Positions 11,911-16,621 are shown, counted from the first letter of the stretch. The stretch is DNA of 55,340 nt from Clostridia bacterium (GCA_017396225.1 JAFQMP010000026.1:1-55340), one strand, 5' to 3'. The notes: a model not told the origin generated them from the sequence alone. Translations and numbers: made by a program.

Positions 11911-12864
11911 CTATCGCGGATTTGAAATGATTTCAAGTGCATTGTTTACAATTTCTTCAAAATTTCGCAGTTTTCCGTCCCGATCCATCACCAACGGTGT
12001 GACATACGCCTTCGCTGAAAACCAGGTAATCTGCCGCTTGGCATAACGACGTGTTGCCTGTTTCAGGCTCTCGGTCGCCTCGGAAAGTGTGCAATCTCCC
12101 GCCAAATAAGGGAGCAATTCTTTATAACCAATAGCTGCTGCCGCCGTGTGGGAAATCTGAAACACGCCGCGCGCCGCAAGCATCTCGGTTTCCGCAAGCA
12201 GACCCTCGGCAAGCATTGCGTCCACACGCTCCTCAATGCGGCGATAAAGCAGCTCTCTGTCCGTGTAAGTCAGGTAAATCACGGTTGCATCATAACGCAT
12301 TGGCTGCTCGCGAGAGCGCCTGTCCCACTCGGTTTTTGTCACGCCTGTCAGCTCATACATTTCAAGGGCACGTATCACGCGGCGCAGATTGCCCGCAGGT
12401 ATCGCCGCCGCCGCATCGGAGTCCACTGCCGCAAGCCTGTCGTGAAGATGCTGTGCGCCGTAAGCCTCGGCCTCGGCAGCCAACCTTTCACGCAGCGCCG
12501 CGTCCCCACCGGGAGATTCGGGCATGCCGCGCAAGAACGCATCAAGATAAAGGCCTGTTCCGCCACAGAAAATCGGCAAGCGTCCGCGCGCGAGAATCTC
12601 CTGCACGGCAGTCTCTGCAGCCACCTGATAATCCACAGCAGAAAAATCCGCCTCAGGCTCTGCCACATCTAACAGATGATAGGGCACGCGGGCGCGATCA
12701 GCCACAGTCGGCTTCGCGGTGCCGATATCCATGTCACGGTAAATCTGCATGGAATCGCAGGAAACAATCTCGCCGTCAAGGCGCAATGCAAGTGCCTCGG
12801 CAAGTGCCGATTTTCCACTTGCTGTCGGGCCTACAACTGCAATAATTTTTGGCTTTTTTTTCAC
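11911..12864 (-). CDS. miaA: tRNA dimethylallyltransferase
   Basis: GPTASGKS, DSMQIYRDMDIGTAKP, GGTGLY, AIGYKE, TRRYAKRQITW. Confidence 0.97.
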   Translation of the reverse strand: MKKKPKIIAVVGPTASGKSALAEALALRLDGEIVSCDSMQIYRDMDIGTAKPTVADRARVPYHLLDVAEPEADFSAVDYQVAAETAVQEILARGRLPIFCGGTGLYLDAFLRGMPESPGGDAALRERLAAEAEAYGAQHLHDRLAAVDSDAAAAIPAGNLRRVIRALEMYELTGVTKTEWDRRSREQPMRYDATVIYLTYTDRELLYRRIEERVDAMLAEGLLAETEMLAARGVFQISHTAAAAIGYKELLPYLAGDCTLSEATESLKQATRRYAKRQITWFSAKAYVTPLVMDRDGKLRNFEEIVNNALEIISNPR

Positions 12865-12892
12865 CCGTATCCCCTCCTTTTCAAAAATTTAT

Positions 12893-12921
12893 TTTGCCGC
12901 CGCATCTGTTGCGGCGGCAAA
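12893..12921. terminator. GC-rich hairpin after the small membrane ORF
   Basis: tttgccgccgca-tctgt-tgcggcggcaaa; weak U-tract. Confidence 0.45.
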
Positions 12922-12928
12922 CCAATGA

Positions 12929-13147
12929 TTACAGGCTCGCGAAATACGGCAAGCCGATATTGATGTAGTCGTGCAAAATGCTGTGGTCGGAAAAGATGAA
13001 CCAGACAATAAGCACAATCACCACAACGGTAATCAAAAACTTTGCCAGCTTACCAAGCAAGCGCAGGGCAAGATAGCACGCCAGCACCGCAACCAGCACG
13101 GCAAGTGCAGCGGTGGCAATATCGGTAAAAAATTCTACATTCAGCAT
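12929..13147 (-). CDS. Small two-TM membrane protein of unknown function
   Basis: 72 aa, two hydrophobic helices, strong AGGAGG RBS. Confidence 0.75.
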   Translation of the reverse strand: MLNVEFFTDIATAALAVLVAVLACYLALRLLGKLAKFLITVVVIVLIVWFIFSDHSILHDYINIGLPYFASL

Positions 13148-13183
13148 TTTTCCTCCTATCCGTAAAACACCTGCGAAACGCCC

Positions 13184-13282
13184 TTATCCTTCAGCAATCC
13201 GCTTTGCCGCACGTGCCATACGGTCAATGTATTCCTCATATTTTATCTTTTTGTAAACCTCGATATATCCGTCATAGCTTCC
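13184..13282 (-). pseudogene. Probable 3'-terminal remnant of a lost gene (GSYDGYIEVYKKIKYEEYIDRMARAAKRIAEG*)
   Basis: About 32 protein-like codons ending in TAA; the frame opens after an in-frame TAG with no start codon at its 5' end, and it is fused to the truncated hairpin unit. Confidence 0.4.
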
Positions 13283-13306
13283 CTACGTCAAGCCGCTTTC
13301 AAGGAG

Positions 13307-13505
13307 CAACGCAGTATTGCGGAATTTATACAATCAGCATCGCGTCGCCGAAGCTAATGCTATACGCTGATTAGGAGAAATTTCGCAAGACAAGGCGTAA
13401 GGGCGCGAATGAGATGAAGCCGTAGTTGCCTACGGCGATTTGAATGAGTCGCCCGACAACGCAGTATTGCGGAATTTATACAATCAGCATCGCATCGCCA
13501 AAGGA
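13307..13505 (-). repeat. Direct repeat of the queA 3' end plus downstream flank (13457-13505 vs 13307-13355), 150-bp period
   Basis: 37 identical nt (caacgcagtattgcggaatttatacaatcagcatcgc), extended by synonymous variants: TCC TTT GGC GAT vs AGC TTC GGC GAC, both reading SFGDAMLIV*. Confidence 0.92.
13356..13490. mobile_element. Putative non-autonomous palindromic (MITE/REPIN-like or structured RNA) element at the queA stop
   Basis: Nested imperfect inverted repeats gctgatt/aatcagc, aaatttcgcaagac/gtattgcggaattt, gggcg/cgccc and a perfect central gccgtag-ttgc-ctacggc hairpin. Confidence 0.55.
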
Positions 13506-14555
13506 GAAAAACCGATATTTCTGCGCAACAGCAACTTTATACGCATCAAGCACGTGTGCGCGGTCGTAAAATGCGGACACCAGCATCACCAGGGTGCTCT
13601 CGGGCAGGTGGAAGTTCGTAATCAACGCGTCCACTGCCTTGAATTTGTATCCGGGGTAGATAAAAATGCCTGTATCCCCCGACACGGGGTGCACAATCCC
13701 CTGCTCATCAGTGACACTTTCCAGAGTGCGGCAGGAGGTTGTTCCGACGGCAATCACGCGTCCGCCGGCGGCGCGGCGCGCATTGATGAGGTCAGCACTT
13801 TCCTTTGATACCGATATGTATTCGGTGTGCATCACGTGCTCGTCAAGGCGGTCCACCTTCACAGGGCGGAAGGTGCCGAGACCCACGTGCAGCATCACAG
13901 GCGCAATCGCCACACCCTTTTCGCGCACACGGTCAAGCAGCTTCTCGGTAAAATGCAGCCCCGCGGTGGGTGCTGCGGCAGAGCCCTCCTCACGGGCATA
14001 AACAGTCTGATAACGGCTCTGGTCGGCGAGGCGCTCGGTGATATAGGGCGGCAGCGGCATCGTGCCGATGCGGTGCAGAATATCATAGATATTTGCATAC
14101 CGTTCGCGGTCATATTCAAATCGAATGAGGCGGTTGCCCTCGGCAACAATATCAGTCACCGTGCCCTTAAGCTCTCCTTCGCCAAAGACGAGGCGCGCGC
14201 CAAGCCTTGCGCGCTTACCGGGCTTTACCAGCACCTCCCAGGTATCAAGTGCGCGCTGACGGAGCAAAAGCAGCTCAATCGCAGCCTCAGGTCTGCCCTC
14301 AGCATGGCCGTAGATACGTGCGGGAATAACCTTGGAATCGTTAATGACAAGGACATCACCCTCACGAAGGTAATCAATGATATCATAAAAATGCTTGTGT
14401 GTCACCGTGTGTGCCGCGCGGTCAAGCACCATCAGGCGCGAGGCATCGCGTTCTGCCATCGGGTGCTGCGCAATCAGCTCCTCAGGCAAATCATAATAGA
14501 AATCCGCCGTCACAAGCTCGGTTTTCGGTTTTTGGTTTACGATGATTTCGGACAT
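13476..14555 (-). CDS. queA: S-adenosylmethionine:tRNA ribosyltransferase-isomerase
   Basis: YDLPEELIAQ, NDSKVIPAR, PLPPYI, YQTVYA..GSAAAPTAGLHFT, AVGTTS, TNFHLPEST, YRFFSFGDAMLI. Confidence 0.98.
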   Translation of the reverse strand: MSEIIVNQKPKTELVTADFYYDLPEELIAQHPMAERDASRLMVLDRAAHTVTHKHFYDIIDYLREGDVLVINDSKVIPARIYGHAEGRPEAAIELLLLRQRALDTWEVLVKPGKRARLGARLVFGEGELKGTVTDIVAEGNRLIRFEYDRERYANIYDILHRIGTMPLPPYITERLADQSRYQTVYAREEGSAAAPTAGLHFTEKLLDRVREKGVAIAPVMLHVGLGTFRPVKVDRLDEHVMHTEYISVSKESADLINARRAAGGRVIAVGTTSCRTLESVTDEQGIVHPVSGDTGIFIYPGYKFKAVDALITNFHLPESTLVMLVSAFYDRAHVLDAYKVAVAQKYRFFSFGDAMLIV

Positions 14556-14663: not shown

Positions 14664-14828
14664 ATGATAGAGGCGCACATTGTGACCTCGCAAAAGCAAG
14701 GCAACCGCTGCCGTTTGAGCTTTTGTGGGAGCGCAGCGTGCCGAAGTGAGCGCGCGGCGGTCGGGTGCTTGCTGGTCTGCACGGTTCAGAGCTGTGGGAC
14801 TGTCGTCAGTATTGATGGAGAGCTATCT
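14664..14828 (+). ncRNA. Lysine riboswitch (L-box)
   Basis: gatAGAGGcGC start, GCCGAA, CTGTC...GGAG.GCTA end; P1 gatag/ctatc; upstream of dapA. Confidence 0.9.
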
Positions 14829-14873
14829 GTATATGTGCGGTAAGACGCCCTTACCTTATTATAGTACAAATAC

Positions 14874-14897
14874 AGCTGGTTTTCAACCAGTTTTTTT
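14874..14897 (+). terminator. Likely riboswitch-controlled leader terminator
   Basis: agctggtt-ttc-aaccagtt followed by a U-tract. Confidence 0.55.
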
Positions 14898-14950
14898 ATT
14901 TTTCTTGTGTTTTTCCGCGTTGCCGACAGAGTCGGAGAAAGGAACATACT

Positions 14951-15844
14951 ATGAGCAAACTGAAACCGAGCATCTTTGAGGGGGCTGCAACCGCGATTAT
15001 CACGCCCTTCAAAAACGGCGCAATGGATTTTGAGGCGATGGGCCGCCACATCGACCTGCAGATTGCAGGTGGCATTGATGCACTTGTCATCGCGGGCACT
15101 ACGGGTGAGGCATCTACCCTCTCCCACGAGGAGCACTGCGAGCTTTTGTCCTTTGCGGCAGAGCACGTGGCGGGGCGCGTGCCGATTATTGCGGGCACGG
15201 GCAGTAATGATACCGCCTACGGCATTGAGCTTTCGCGCTACGCCTGTGATGTTGGCTACGACGCACTTCTCATCGTCACCCCCTATTACAACAAGGCTAC
15301 CCCCAAGGGTCTTATTCGCAATTTCCTTGCAACCGCAGATGCAACCAATAAGCCGATTATCCTCTACAATGTTCCCTCTCGTACGGGTGTGAATATTCCG
15401 ATTTCGGTTTACCGTGAGCTTGCCAAGCACGAGCGCATTGTCGCCGTCAAGGAGGCATCGGGCAACATCTCCGCCATCGCGCAGCTCTTTGCCGAGTGTG
15501 GCGACGCCTTTGACATTTACTCGGGCAACGACGACCAGATTGTCCCCATTATGTCGATGGGCGGCAAGGGTGTCATTTCGGTCGTTTCCAACATACTGCC
15601 CCAAGAAACGCACGACCTCTGTGCAGCATGCCTTGCGGGCGACTTCAAGAAGGGCACCGAGATGCAGCTCCACTATCTGAAGCTCATCAACGCCCTCTTC
15701 TGCGAGGTCAACCCCGTTCCCGTCAAGACAGCAACTGAGCTTATGGGCATTTCGAATGGCGAGCTCCGCCTGCCCCTTTGCGAAATGGAGCCCGAAAACC
15801 GCGAAAAGCTGGCCCGCATCATGAAGGAATACGGCTTGATTTAA
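14951..15844 (+). CDS. dapA: 4-hydroxy-tetrahydrodipicolinate synthase
   Basis: GTTGE, PYYNK, LYNVPSRTG, VKEASG, YSGNDD, NPVPVK. Confidence 0.96.
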   Translation: MSKLKPSIFEGAATAIITPFKNGAMDFEAMGRHIDLQIAGGIDALVIAGTTGEASTLSHEEHCELLSFAAEHVAGRVPIIAGTGSNDTAYGIELSRYACDVGYDALLIVTPYYNKATPKGLIRNFLATADATNKPIILYNVPSRTGVNIPISVYRELAKHERIVAVKEASGNISAIAQLFAECGDAFDIYSGNDDQIVPIMSMGGKGVISVVSNILPQETHDLCAACLAGDFKKGTEMQLHYLKLINALFCEVNPVPVKTATELMGISNGELRLPLCEMEPENREKLARIMKEYGLI

Positions 15845-15865
15845 CCCCCGAAAGGAAGTTCCAAA

Positions 15866-16621
15866 ATGCTGAATATTATGCTTTGCGGCTGTGGAGGCCG
15901 CATGGGCGCCGCAGTAGCGGCTGCTGCAGCAGCTGCGGGCGACCGCATTGTGGCGGGTGTTGACATCAACCCCGCCGCCTCCAACCCTTATCCTGTTTTT
16001 GCCACCCCCGATGAATTTAATGGCAAAGCAGATGTCATCATCGATTTCTCGCACCATTCTGCGTTGTATGTGCTCCTGTCCTACGCGGAGCGCACTGCCA
16101 CCCCCATTGTTGTCTGCACAACGGGTCACTCTGAGGAGGAGCTGGCCCTGATGAAGGAAACTGCCACCCGTGTGCCTGTTTTTTTCTCCCGCAATATGTC
16201 GCTTGGCATCAATCTCTTAATGGCGCTCTGCCGCCGTGCTGCCGCCACACTGGGTGCCGACTTTGACGTGGAAATTATCGAAAAGCATCACAACAAAAAG
16301 CTTGACGCACCGAGCGGCACCGCCCTGATGCTGGCAGATGCCGTTGCCGAGGTCGACAAGGACGCGCACCCCTACGTATTTGAGCGCGCCAGCGAGCGTC
16401 GCGCACGTGCGCGCGGGGAGATTGGCATTTCTGCCGTACGCGGCGGCACCATTGTTGGCGAGCACGAGGTTTTATTCTGCGGCAAGGACGAGGTCATTAC
16501 CCTGGCGCACAGCGCTACCTCGCGCGAGGTATTTGCCACCGGTGCCATGCGCGCTGCCCACTTTATGGTCGGGCGTGCTGCAGGATTTTACAATATGGAC
16601 GACGTTATCAATTCCCTCTGA
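15866..16621 (+). CDS. dapB: 4-hydroxy-tetrahydrodipicolinate reductase
   Basis: GCGGRMG, IDFS, CTTG, NMSLG, EKHHNKKLDAPSGTA, RGGTIVGEH. Confidence 0.96.
   Translation: MLNIMLCGCGGRMGAAVAAAAAAAGDRIVAGVDINPAASNPYPVFATPDEFNGKADVIIDFSHHSALYVLLSYAERTATPIVVCTTGHSEEELALMKETATRVPVFFSRNMSLGINLLMALCRRAAATLGADFDVEIIEKHHNKKLDAPSGTALMLADAVAEVDKDAHPYVFERASERRARARGEIGISAVRGGTIVGEHEVLFCGKDEVITLAHSATSREVFATGAMRAAHFMVGRAAGFYNMDDVINSL

Follow-up and report, generated by a model that had tools for sequence, protein, structure and literature searches.

A repeated queA gene end in a Clostridia bacterium, probably the attachment-site scar of a non-autonomous mini-cassette

We examined a stretch of 55,340 nucleotides from a Clostridia bacterium (GCA_017396225.1 JAFQMP010000026.1:1-55340; hereafter the window, meaning the whole of this stretch), in which the 3' end of queA is found a second time 150 nt further downstream. 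This repeat is probably the attachment-site scar of a non-autonomous mini-cassette that was moved in trans, similar to members of the staphylococcal cassette chromosome (SCC) group. We observed the anatomy of the locus, its recurrence and polarity in the genus, a conserved boundary at the distal gene end, gene-carrying cassettes and a prophage at the same crossover region, and copies with a queA-end mimic at other genes. The window belongs to G000, a metagenome-assembled draft genome of 73 contigs (G, C and L number genomes, contigs and loci, respectively). The features of the locus, in the direction of queA, are:

13476-14555, minus strand: queA (S-adenosylmethionine:tRNA ribosyltransferase-isomerase), 359 aa, ending ...FSFGDAMLIV* (Pfam PF02547 Queuosine_synth, E 2.5e-140)
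13457-13505, minus strand: copy 1, the proximal in-frame queA end, attL-like
13366-13475, minus strand: unit E1, a long imperfect hairpin (nhmmer match C5:13483-13356, E 2e-4; fold; alignment A1)
13347-13365, minus strand: left half-site of the distal site, GTAT + AGCATTAGCTTCGGC, a shortened form of the conserved boundary TCTTATAT + N15
13307-13346, minus strand: right side of copy 2, the displaced distal end, attR-like, GAC GCG ATG CTG ATT GTA TAA + ATTCCGCAATACTGCGTTG
13273-13325, minus strand: unit E2, a half hairpin (ATTCCGCAATACTGCGTTGCTCCTTGAAAGCGGCTTGACGTAGG...; nhmmer match C5:13333-13273, model positions 8-67 only, E 3.4e-13)
12929-13147, minus strand: open reading frame (ORF) of a small membrane-protein-like product of 72 aa without a family match; orthologues lie downstream of queA in most loci of the genus
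11911-12864, minus strand: miaA (tRNA isopentenyltransferase), the downstream anchor (Pfam IPPT, E 1.5e-84)

Copy 1 reads TCC TTT GGC GAT GCG ATG CTG ATT GTA TAA followed by ATTCCGCAATACTGCGTTG (13505-13457), and copy 2 reads AGC TTC GGC GAC GCG ATG CTG ATT GTA TAA followed by the identical 19 nt (13355-13307), the start-to-start spacing being 150 nt in a repeat search of the window. The pair can be described as an exact repeat of 37 nt or as a repeat of 49 nt with four differences; the shared exact 37-mer is present twice in the window versus not once in any of 100 dinucleotide-preserving shuffles. All four differences (TCC/AGC, TTT/TTC, GAT/GAC) are confined to codons one to four and, as read, leave the encoded residues unchanged; copy 2 is not translated within queA. 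Copy 1 is made up of the native left side TTCTCCTTTG, the centre GC-GA-TG (GA at 13496-13495) and a right side consisting of CGATGCTGATTGTATAA and the first 19 nt of the hairpin. The body of unit E1 is of the subtype GTTGTCGGGCGAC...GCGCCCTTACGCC, and the 3' tail CGAAATTTCTCCTAATCAGC of this unit forms base pairs with GCTGATTGTATAAATTCCG of the queA end. Unit E2 corresponds to the 5' half of the canonical hairpin of the family, without the 3' half and without a further gene-end copy, and its segment is matched at many other loci in congeners.

An earlier note on this DNA had described the queA end as repeated 150 nt downstream and had named a chimeric assembly of two strains as what would undo its reading. 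The repeat was borne out by the exact 37-nt match and by independent contigs (Logan) from four runs in two studies, which we aligned to the locus as contigs, not as reads. Contigs of X1, a run that may stem from the source sample, bridge all junctions without differences (13314-13395, 13377-13486 and 13464-13602, depths 10.2-10.8); an X3 contig spans 13314-13486 and an X4 contig 13324-13490, likewise without differences and from the same study as X1. From the second study, one X5 contig (13266-13493, five differences) reaches across copy 2 and the unit and through most of copy 1. To the extent that contigs can tell, the repeat is real and is no assembly chimera. Joining of two strains might be suspected in a metagenome-assembled draft of 73 contigs in which family repeats often lie at contig ends, but with contigs of four runs and two studies bridging the junctions at even depth, and with the same layout in G004 and G049, we regard it as extremely improbable.

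The ~110 nt that follow the queA stop codon fold as a long imperfect hairpin, in which the gene end ATGCTGATT is base paired with the 3' tail AATCAGC..GCAT; the minimum free energy is -29 kcal/mol with a z-score of only -1.76. A profile built from the copies of relatives gave 11 matches with E<0.01 in the 1.54-Mb draft genome G000, several of them at contig ends, and 29 aligned copies (alignment A1) yielded a consensus hairpin of 23 pairs, 18 of which show compensatory changes. Family members usually adjoin or overlap the stop codon of the preceding gene, with an outer stem that differs from locus to locus. No family of Rfam 15 covers the hairpins (window 12500-14000 and nine loci with hairpin copies), only weak sub-threshold matches being found elsewhere. 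Over 35 queA loci of the genus the residues FSFGD(A/C)M are constant, and the last three residues vary (LIV, LIQ, LIE, FIE, FIQ, FLQ, MIE, LIR, FIY, LLV); the 3' tail of the hairpin fits the type of gene end, with CGAAATTTCTCCTAATCAGC next to LIV* and CTTGCTTCTTGAATGA next to xIQ*. A second locus in G000 (C40:1-250 and C9:22980-23208) also stacks a gene end and a unit: it is a tandem array of at least four identical hairpin units after a gene ending ...CTCGGCGCGTAA. Each of these units repeats GCGCGTAATTCGGCTGG, the same 15 nt are present again after the last partial unit, and the array interrupts the assembly.

The gene-end pattern was searched for in every one of the 40 genomes that the collection contains for this genus. 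Two to three queA-end copies 144-164 nt apart were found in seven of them (G000, G004, G020, G024, G041, G046, G049), and reading of the loci added four more. In G006 the insert is of another kind and the second end has diverged further; G014 shows the repeat only in part; in G043 a unit stands by itself 191 nt past the queA stop of that genome; and G051 has a 1-kb cassette. The order gene end, unit, gene end is thereby present in ~11 of the 40 genomes. Other species have a single hairpin or none (e.g. G016, G023, G007, G022, G019, G052, G011), so that empty, single and multi-unit alleles, with one to three units, all exist. Within the genus, queA-end copies a kilobase apart are seen in G051 only (1,062 nt); an order-wide sample of 401 genomes yielded such copies in G174, G244 and G040. 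The AGC-type copy of the window is common to G004, G049 and G043, and G053 carries a real in-frame queA end, AGC TTC GGT GAC GCG ATG CTG ATT GTA TAA, which is identical to copy 2 of the window at 29 of 30 positions.

Comparison between species also gave the polarity of the arrangement. In G046 the order is queA with LIV*, the unit, GGCGATGCCATGTTCATCCAATAA and a canonical hairpin; this distal 21-mer is identical to the native FIQ* queA end of G008, and the distal hairpin matches that of G008 at 110 of 119 positions, compared with 339 of 450 for the queA bodies. In G041 two repeats of an LIV* end and a unit are followed by an LIQ* end (TGA) and then by sequence that is found downstream of queA in G043. 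From both comparisons it follows that the in-frame end arrived with the insert and the older end was displaced downstream. Between G046 and G020 the unit is identical at 130 of 134 positions and the queA body at 353 of 450; the resident queA ends differ, and the tract of high identity begins within the last ~30 nt of queA. Some pairs of units are far more alike between species than queA itself (97.0 vs 78.4%, 96.7 vs 78.4% and 91.3 vs 76.2%).

G051 and G040, the latter from a different family within the order, have ~1-kb gene cassettes and ..TCTTATAT plus 15 nt ahead of the second queA end. A scan of 185,579 species genomes (GTDB species, one genome each) with the pattern TCTTATAT-N(10-25)-GAYGCNATGCTSATH gave 53 loci, nearly all in metagenome bins of Clostridia, Eubacteriales or Oscillospiraceae, while ~8 in other phyla look like chance. 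N is exactly 15 at 44 sites, and 32 loci have queA upstream in the same orientation. Of these, 16 have the distal copy 88-320 nt past the queA stop, and in the remaining 16 the interval is 837-1763 nt. In only 3 of the 32 loci do the proximal and distal 21-mers agree fully, their last 12 nt differ in 27, and 30 distal copies read as a queA-like C-terminus with a stop. Since the two 21-mers mostly differ yet are both queA-like, they represent two gene-end alleles rather than a target duplication.

The N15 segment, which was left free in the pattern, is inverted-complementary to the queA end, with 62% complementarity in the best register (43 unique distal sites); in this register arms of 10 nt flank a centre of 6 nt, the middle of which is the GA of the Asp codon. 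The distal sites are hence built as attachment sites are, from two degenerate inverted half-sites flanking a central dinucleotide. In the window N15 is AGCATYAGCTTCGGC, and AGC-TTC-G of copy 2 belongs to the conserved boundary motif, of which G004 keeps more (TCTTGTAT AGCATCAGCTTTGGC). Copy 2 of the window can be written as GTAT AGCATTAGCTTCG GC-GA-CG CGATGCTGAT, with 8 of 10 complementary arm positions compared to 5 of 10 in copy 1. The symmetry is strong (7-10 of 10) in the N15 subtype AGCATCAGC(A/T)TCG, which includes this copy.

The long inserts (837-1763 nt) in 16 of the 32 loci encode genes, and no recombinase is found in any of them. The cargo comprises pairs of DUF4160 and DUF2442/HTH_59 proteins, RelB with YafQ, ParE-like toxins with XRE partners, Gp49 (HigB-like) with XRE, a Peptidase_M78 protein and a protein with AAA and dCMP-deaminase domains; L068 and L105 carry two units in tandem. 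The AAA and deaminase protein, with a P-loop N-terminal (AAA_18/AAA_17) and a dCMP/cytidine deaminase C-terminal part, is encoded at L101:2145-3305 and on C31 of G051 (L050 reverse strand, ~788-1309); it is reminiscent of deaminase-type anti-phage proteins. By eye, most long inserts have TTACCRATYGGTAA-type palindromes at both ends: such 14-bp pairs flank unrelated cargo in L076, L083, L088-L090, L097, L104, L110, L114, G051 and G040, are not present in the unit of the window, and may be binding sites for a protein of the system. In G174, from a further family, a perfect 27-nt repeat of the queA end surrounds an unannotated insert with two ORFs, the second of which resembles an XRE/HTH antitoxin when read by eye.

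Units were also found away from queA. In G244 a tract of ~100 nt, which starts with a queA-end mimic, is present both at queA and at the stop of a DNA polymerase III alpha gene, with 96/100 identical positions, and in G439 a unit with mimic is also located after an HMA-domain gene (136/151 identical). These off-site copies indicate that the units carry the gene-end mimic along.

The same crossover region is occupied by a prophage in G439. Here queA ends TTT GGC GAC GCG ATG / TTT ATA GGA TAA (TTTGGCGACGCGATG|TTTATAGGATAA) and is followed by a 585-aa protein (Resolvase + Recombinase + Zn_ribbon_recom) and by phage-like genes, these genes being named by sequence alone. Approximately 87 kb further on we found TTT GGC GAC GCG ATG / CTG ATA GAA TAA (TTTGGCGACGCGATG|CTGATAGAATAA), then two copies of a 130-nt palindromic unit with a DUF4160/DUF2442 cassette between them, all three followed by a queA-like end, and finally miaA. 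The prophage swaps the last four queA codons (LIE* to FIG*), with 15 identical nt at both junctions. Relatives of the G439 recombinase (45-100% identity) are encoded at nine loci on viral contigs. The two with full identity span the queA junction; at a third, with 56% identity, ATCGGTGATGCCATGTTCATACTATAA lies 249 nt away from the gene and queA is missing upstream, which is the arrangement predicted for an attP. At the other six the flank is too short or gives no match. A search of viral contigs with GAYGCNATGCTGATHGTATRA gave 0 matches; the viral mimic ATCGGTGATGCCATGTTCATACTATAA ends differently. Among the other queA-region loci compared, tblastn found no relative of the G439 recombinase, a comparison in which other recombinase families were not screened.

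Several further points of the earlier note can now be judged. It had proposed to look for presence/absence variation of the unit, and alleles lacking the unit or carrying one, two or three units are indeed found in the queA-miaA interval of congeners; it had seen no recombinase in the window, which holds for every unit, and the copies elsewhere for which it proposed a search are represented by related units with a queA-end mimic at non-queA sites in other genera (G244, G439). Its view that the second gene end is foreign is partly supported (29/30 in G053; one unit before different resident ends in G020 and G046) and has to be turned round in that, where the two ends are of different types, the proximal end is the one that came with the insert (G046/G008, G041/G043). 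Similarly, the four differences it took as a sign of foreign origin are synonymous, but AGC-TTC-G belongs to the boundary motif, which means that the 'synonymous Ser codon' stems at least in part from the site itself. The idea of a general gene-end-targeting element of this genome had to be given up: a 211-nt stretch has no second copy in G000, and 37 of the 49 family matches examined have no flanking direct repeat of at least 14 nt, so that the gene-end repeat is no general footprint of the hairpin family. Integration, which the note took to run through this homology, is more likely site-specific than dependent on homology alone, a large serine recombinase prophage using the same crossover region in G439. 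No co-distribution emerged for large serine recombinases, which 26 of the 40 genus genomes contain irrespective of the arrays (G041, for instance, lacks these enzymes but has an array).

For the arrangement in the window we propose the following course. A cassette of ~150 bp would consist of a gene-end mimic (CG ATG CTG ATT GTA TAA), a long hairpin and a left half-site (..GTAT AGCATTAGCTTCG). We infer a circular intermediate: when circularised, the cassette would form an attP-like site, palindromic in part, with the GA of the Asp codon at its centre, and the circle junction would read ...GTATAGCATTAGCTTCGGCGA|YGCGATGCTGATTGTATAAATTCCGC. Recombination of this site with the native queA end would generate attL (native left side, mimic and unit) and attR (left half-site and displaced end), whereby the end of the cassette would come to lie in frame and the previous end would be pushed downstream, untranslated. 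Unit E1 with its half-site would accordingly be the newest unit of the window, copy 2 with the half hairpin E2 would be the previous end, and the unit may be mobile to the present day. Stacking could result from repeated insertion plus local unequal crossing-over, and in other gut Clostridia the same docking site would take recombinase-less cassettes of 1-1.7 kb as well as whole prophages. Because no unit encodes an enzyme, one would have to be supplied in trans. The foremost candidate is a large serine recombinase, in view of the one at this junction in G439 and of the SCC-like layout of half-sites around GA, and such an enzyme is also the most likely one for the small units. More tentatively, the queA end may be an integron- or SCC-like docking platform in gut Clostridia, where recombinase-less cassettes, possibly ranging from cargo-free ~150-bp hairpins to 1-1.7 kb toxin-antitoxin and anti-phage modules, would be captured, stacked newest-first and exchanged between species by serine recombinases borrowed from phages with the same insertion site.

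A number of observations weigh against an attachment-site scar. The search pattern of the boundary scan prescribed TCTTATAT and a portion of the gene end, so that their conservation in that set is built in. The symmetry of the sites is modest, with a mean arm complementarity of 6.1 at distal sites compared to 4.7 at native proximal sites, and is weak in the CCCGTA/CGCATA subtypes (2-5 of 10). Neither an excision junction nor a circle nor a joint skipping the 150 nt is present among the joints listed for the contigs of the four runs, and contigs cannot show absence. Regarding the enzyme, no recombinase lies in or near the unit of the window, the only large serine recombinase of G000 is truncated, located on a 3-kb contig and 27.6% identical to that of G439, the distribution of such enzymes in the genus is unrelated to the arrays as given above, and the left arm of the G439 prophage is without the TCTTATAT motif. 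The identity of units and queA is similar in some species pairs (85.1 vs 83.3% in G000/G004, 74.5 vs 79.1% in G049/G053), and high identity of units could also stem from selection on the hairpin. As G000 and G004 have the AGC-type copy in common, the insertion in the window may be old and now immobile. Finally, identical tandem units (G049, G041) can arise from unequal crossing-over alone.

The last point leads to a purely local origin, by slippage or unequal crossing-over at a fragile palindrome with later divergence and gene conversion, which would need neither a mobile unit nor a dedicated enzyme. Long palindromes are recombination hot spots, units 1 and 2 of G041 and units 1 and 3 of G049 are identical within their genomes, and the second array of G000 (C40 start / C9 end) repeats identical units with GCGCGTAATTCGGCTGG. 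We nevertheless consider such an origin unlikely, as adjacent units of the window share 37 identical nt yet have unrelated hairpin bodies, distal ends are of another allele type that matches sister species, one and the same unit precedes different resident ends, and gene cassettes and a prophage are found at the same junction, with off-site copies that carry the mimic. General (RecA-type) recombination with DNA taken up from relatives of other species, with crossovers at short conserved islands (the FGDAM codons, hairpin segments) that lead to mosaics and Campbell-type duplications, would account for units that switch at the conserved segments CAATACTGCGTT and GCCTTGTCTTG, for unit 2 of G049, which matches the G018 unit at 88 of 91 positions and then has a different tail, and for the switch between element and resident sequence, which is always located in the sole shared stretch GG(C)GAYGCNATG. 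This stretch is only ~9-15 nt long, however, and thus short for RecA-dependent exchange, for which the minimal processing segment is ~25 nt or more. The left boundary motif moreover has been conserved in different families of the order and shows no homology to the left flank of the target, and a serine recombinase prophage sits at the same point, so that we assign a low probability to this route.

Site-specific recombination could also be the work of a tyrosine recombinase, either an integrase or a Xer-like enzyme, in the manner of the accretion seen with cis-mobilizable elements (CIMEs) and integrative and conjugative elements (ICEs) or of dif modules. Junction identities of 21-49 nt are typical of tyrosine integrase sites in gene 3' ends, and inverted arms of 10 nt with a 6-nt centre fit a tyrosine core site as well. 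Against this stand the large serine recombinase, the sole recombinase found beside the junction, albeit with no systematic search for tyrosine recombinases, and its viral relatives, which adjoin a queA-end mimic; dif-like sequence was not seen by eye. A tyrosine enzyme in place of a large serine recombinase therefore appears quite improbable to us. Further candidates were rejected. A pair of variable and template repeats (VR/TR) of a diversity-generating retroelement does not agree with the differences T/A, C/G, T/C and T/C, which are not confined to adenines; a simple target-site duplication does not agree with flanks of 21-49 nt that are different alleles (last 12 nt different in 27/32); and a DDE-dependent miniature inverted-repeat transposable element (MITE) would call for a fixed short target duplication and for many near-identical dispersed copies in G000, neither of which was found. 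A spacer of decayed queA codons, and extension of the palindrome by template switching as the source of the gene-end-complementary tail, were both dropped after the conserved boundary, the cargo cassettes and the prophage had been found, and may still contribute.

Among known systems SCC and its ccr-less relatives (pseudo-SCC) are closest to the queA units, with which they have gene-end docking, half-sites around GA, stacking and recombinase-less members in common. SCC and SCCmec are described as inserting in the last codons of rlmH, with att sites of two degenerate inverted half-sites around a central GA (PMC13739063). Composite SCC islands are likewise described as tandem elements with internal att sites, the gene-distal element being taken as the oldest and some elements lacking a recombinase; the enzymes are large serine recombinases (PMC13739063; bioRxiv 10.1101/336396). 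At queA, too, insertion is at the 3' end of the gene and the frame is kept by the element's own sequence, and tandem elements with internal att sites and the oldest element in distal position are found as two to three units in G024, G041 and G049 and as mixed arrays in L068, L105 and G439. Unlike in SCC, the target is queA, the hosts are gut Clostridia, and the units are gene-free with ~150 bp or carry toxin-antitoxin or deaminase cargo of ~1 kb, all of it known here by its sequence; the 16 cassette inserts are free of recombinase genes, ccr-type ones included, and the only recombinase seen at the site, next to the queA junction in G439, is borne by the ~87-kb prophage.

Phages and ICEs that use gene 3' ends are comparable insofar as the G439 prophage and the viral contig likewise carry a replacement queA end near the recombinase; in contrast to these, the unit of the window is gene-free and hence unable to code for an integrase. 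CIMEs at the fda 3' end of Streptococcus thermophilus are reportedly flanked by att sites, devoid of recombination genes, presumably mobilised by an autonomous relative, and subject to tandem accretion; they differ in being tyrosine integrase-dependent and kilobases long. Integron cassettes are small and recombinase-less, often encode toxin-antitoxin pairs, have hairpin-forming attC sites and are stacked promoter-proximally, with the newest beside the docking site. The docking site at queA differs from this in being the coding end of a housekeeping gene, and the cassettes carry a gene-end mimic; the integron boxes RYYYAAC/GTTRRRY were not seen by eye in alignment A1, and neither attI nor intI was noticed, no search for intI being made. 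MITEs and repetitive extragenic palindromic (REP)-like repeats comprise ERIC, Correia and REPIN sequences. Like these, the hairpin of the window belongs to a dispersed palindromic family of ~110-130 nt at or over stop codons; unlike these, it has no short fixed duplication, its outer arms are locus-specific and pair with the last codons of the upstream gene, and the flanks at queA are two alleles.

We found no description of queA as such a site in the literature searched, subscription journals and supplementary files being outside the search. New are queA as the target, gut Clostridia as hosts, units that are very small and free of cargo, and mini-cassettes with toxin-antitoxin or deaminase genes. 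If the proposed reading is true, gut Clostridia possess a hot spot akin to that of SCC at rlmH, at which tiny toxin-antitoxin and putative anti-phage cassettes are gathered and swapped, and a minimal mobile unit may consist of little beyond an attachment site and a hairpin. It would then also provide a compact attP/attB pair together with candidate serine recombinases for bacteria that are hard to engineer, and the signature TCTTATAT-N15-queA end could be used to spot cassettes in metagenomes. The C-terminal residues of QueA (LIV*, LIE*, FIQ*, FIG* etc.) would have been rewritten repeatedly by mobile DNA.

Regarding the surroundings of the locus, a 447-aa ORF upstream of queA on the same strand (14786-16129) has no match in Pfam or NCBIfam and hence is no recognisable recombinase; it may be spurious, as relatives have a divergent gene with a lysine riboswitch at that place. 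Such riboswitches lie divergently upstream of queA in three congeners (L011:2851-3024, L012:367-541 and L019:364-539) with scores of 66.6, 65.7 and 62.7 bits, respectively, compared to a gathering score of 30. In the congener loci L014, L015, L016, L020, L023, L024 and L057 the conserved motif AACTCACCCCGTTTTGGGGGATACT, which may be a promoter or operator, immediately precedes the small membrane-protein ORF; positions 13148-13306 of the window hold a differing sequence without this motif. A second, REP-like repeat family begins with GTAG (GTAGGGGCGACC..GGTCGCC..CCCCTAC) and is present in up to four tandem copies after the queA hairpin, in L052 (G042), L011, L027, L047, L072, L082, L103 and L105. 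In G006 a repeat of this family takes the place of the hairpin inside a unit.

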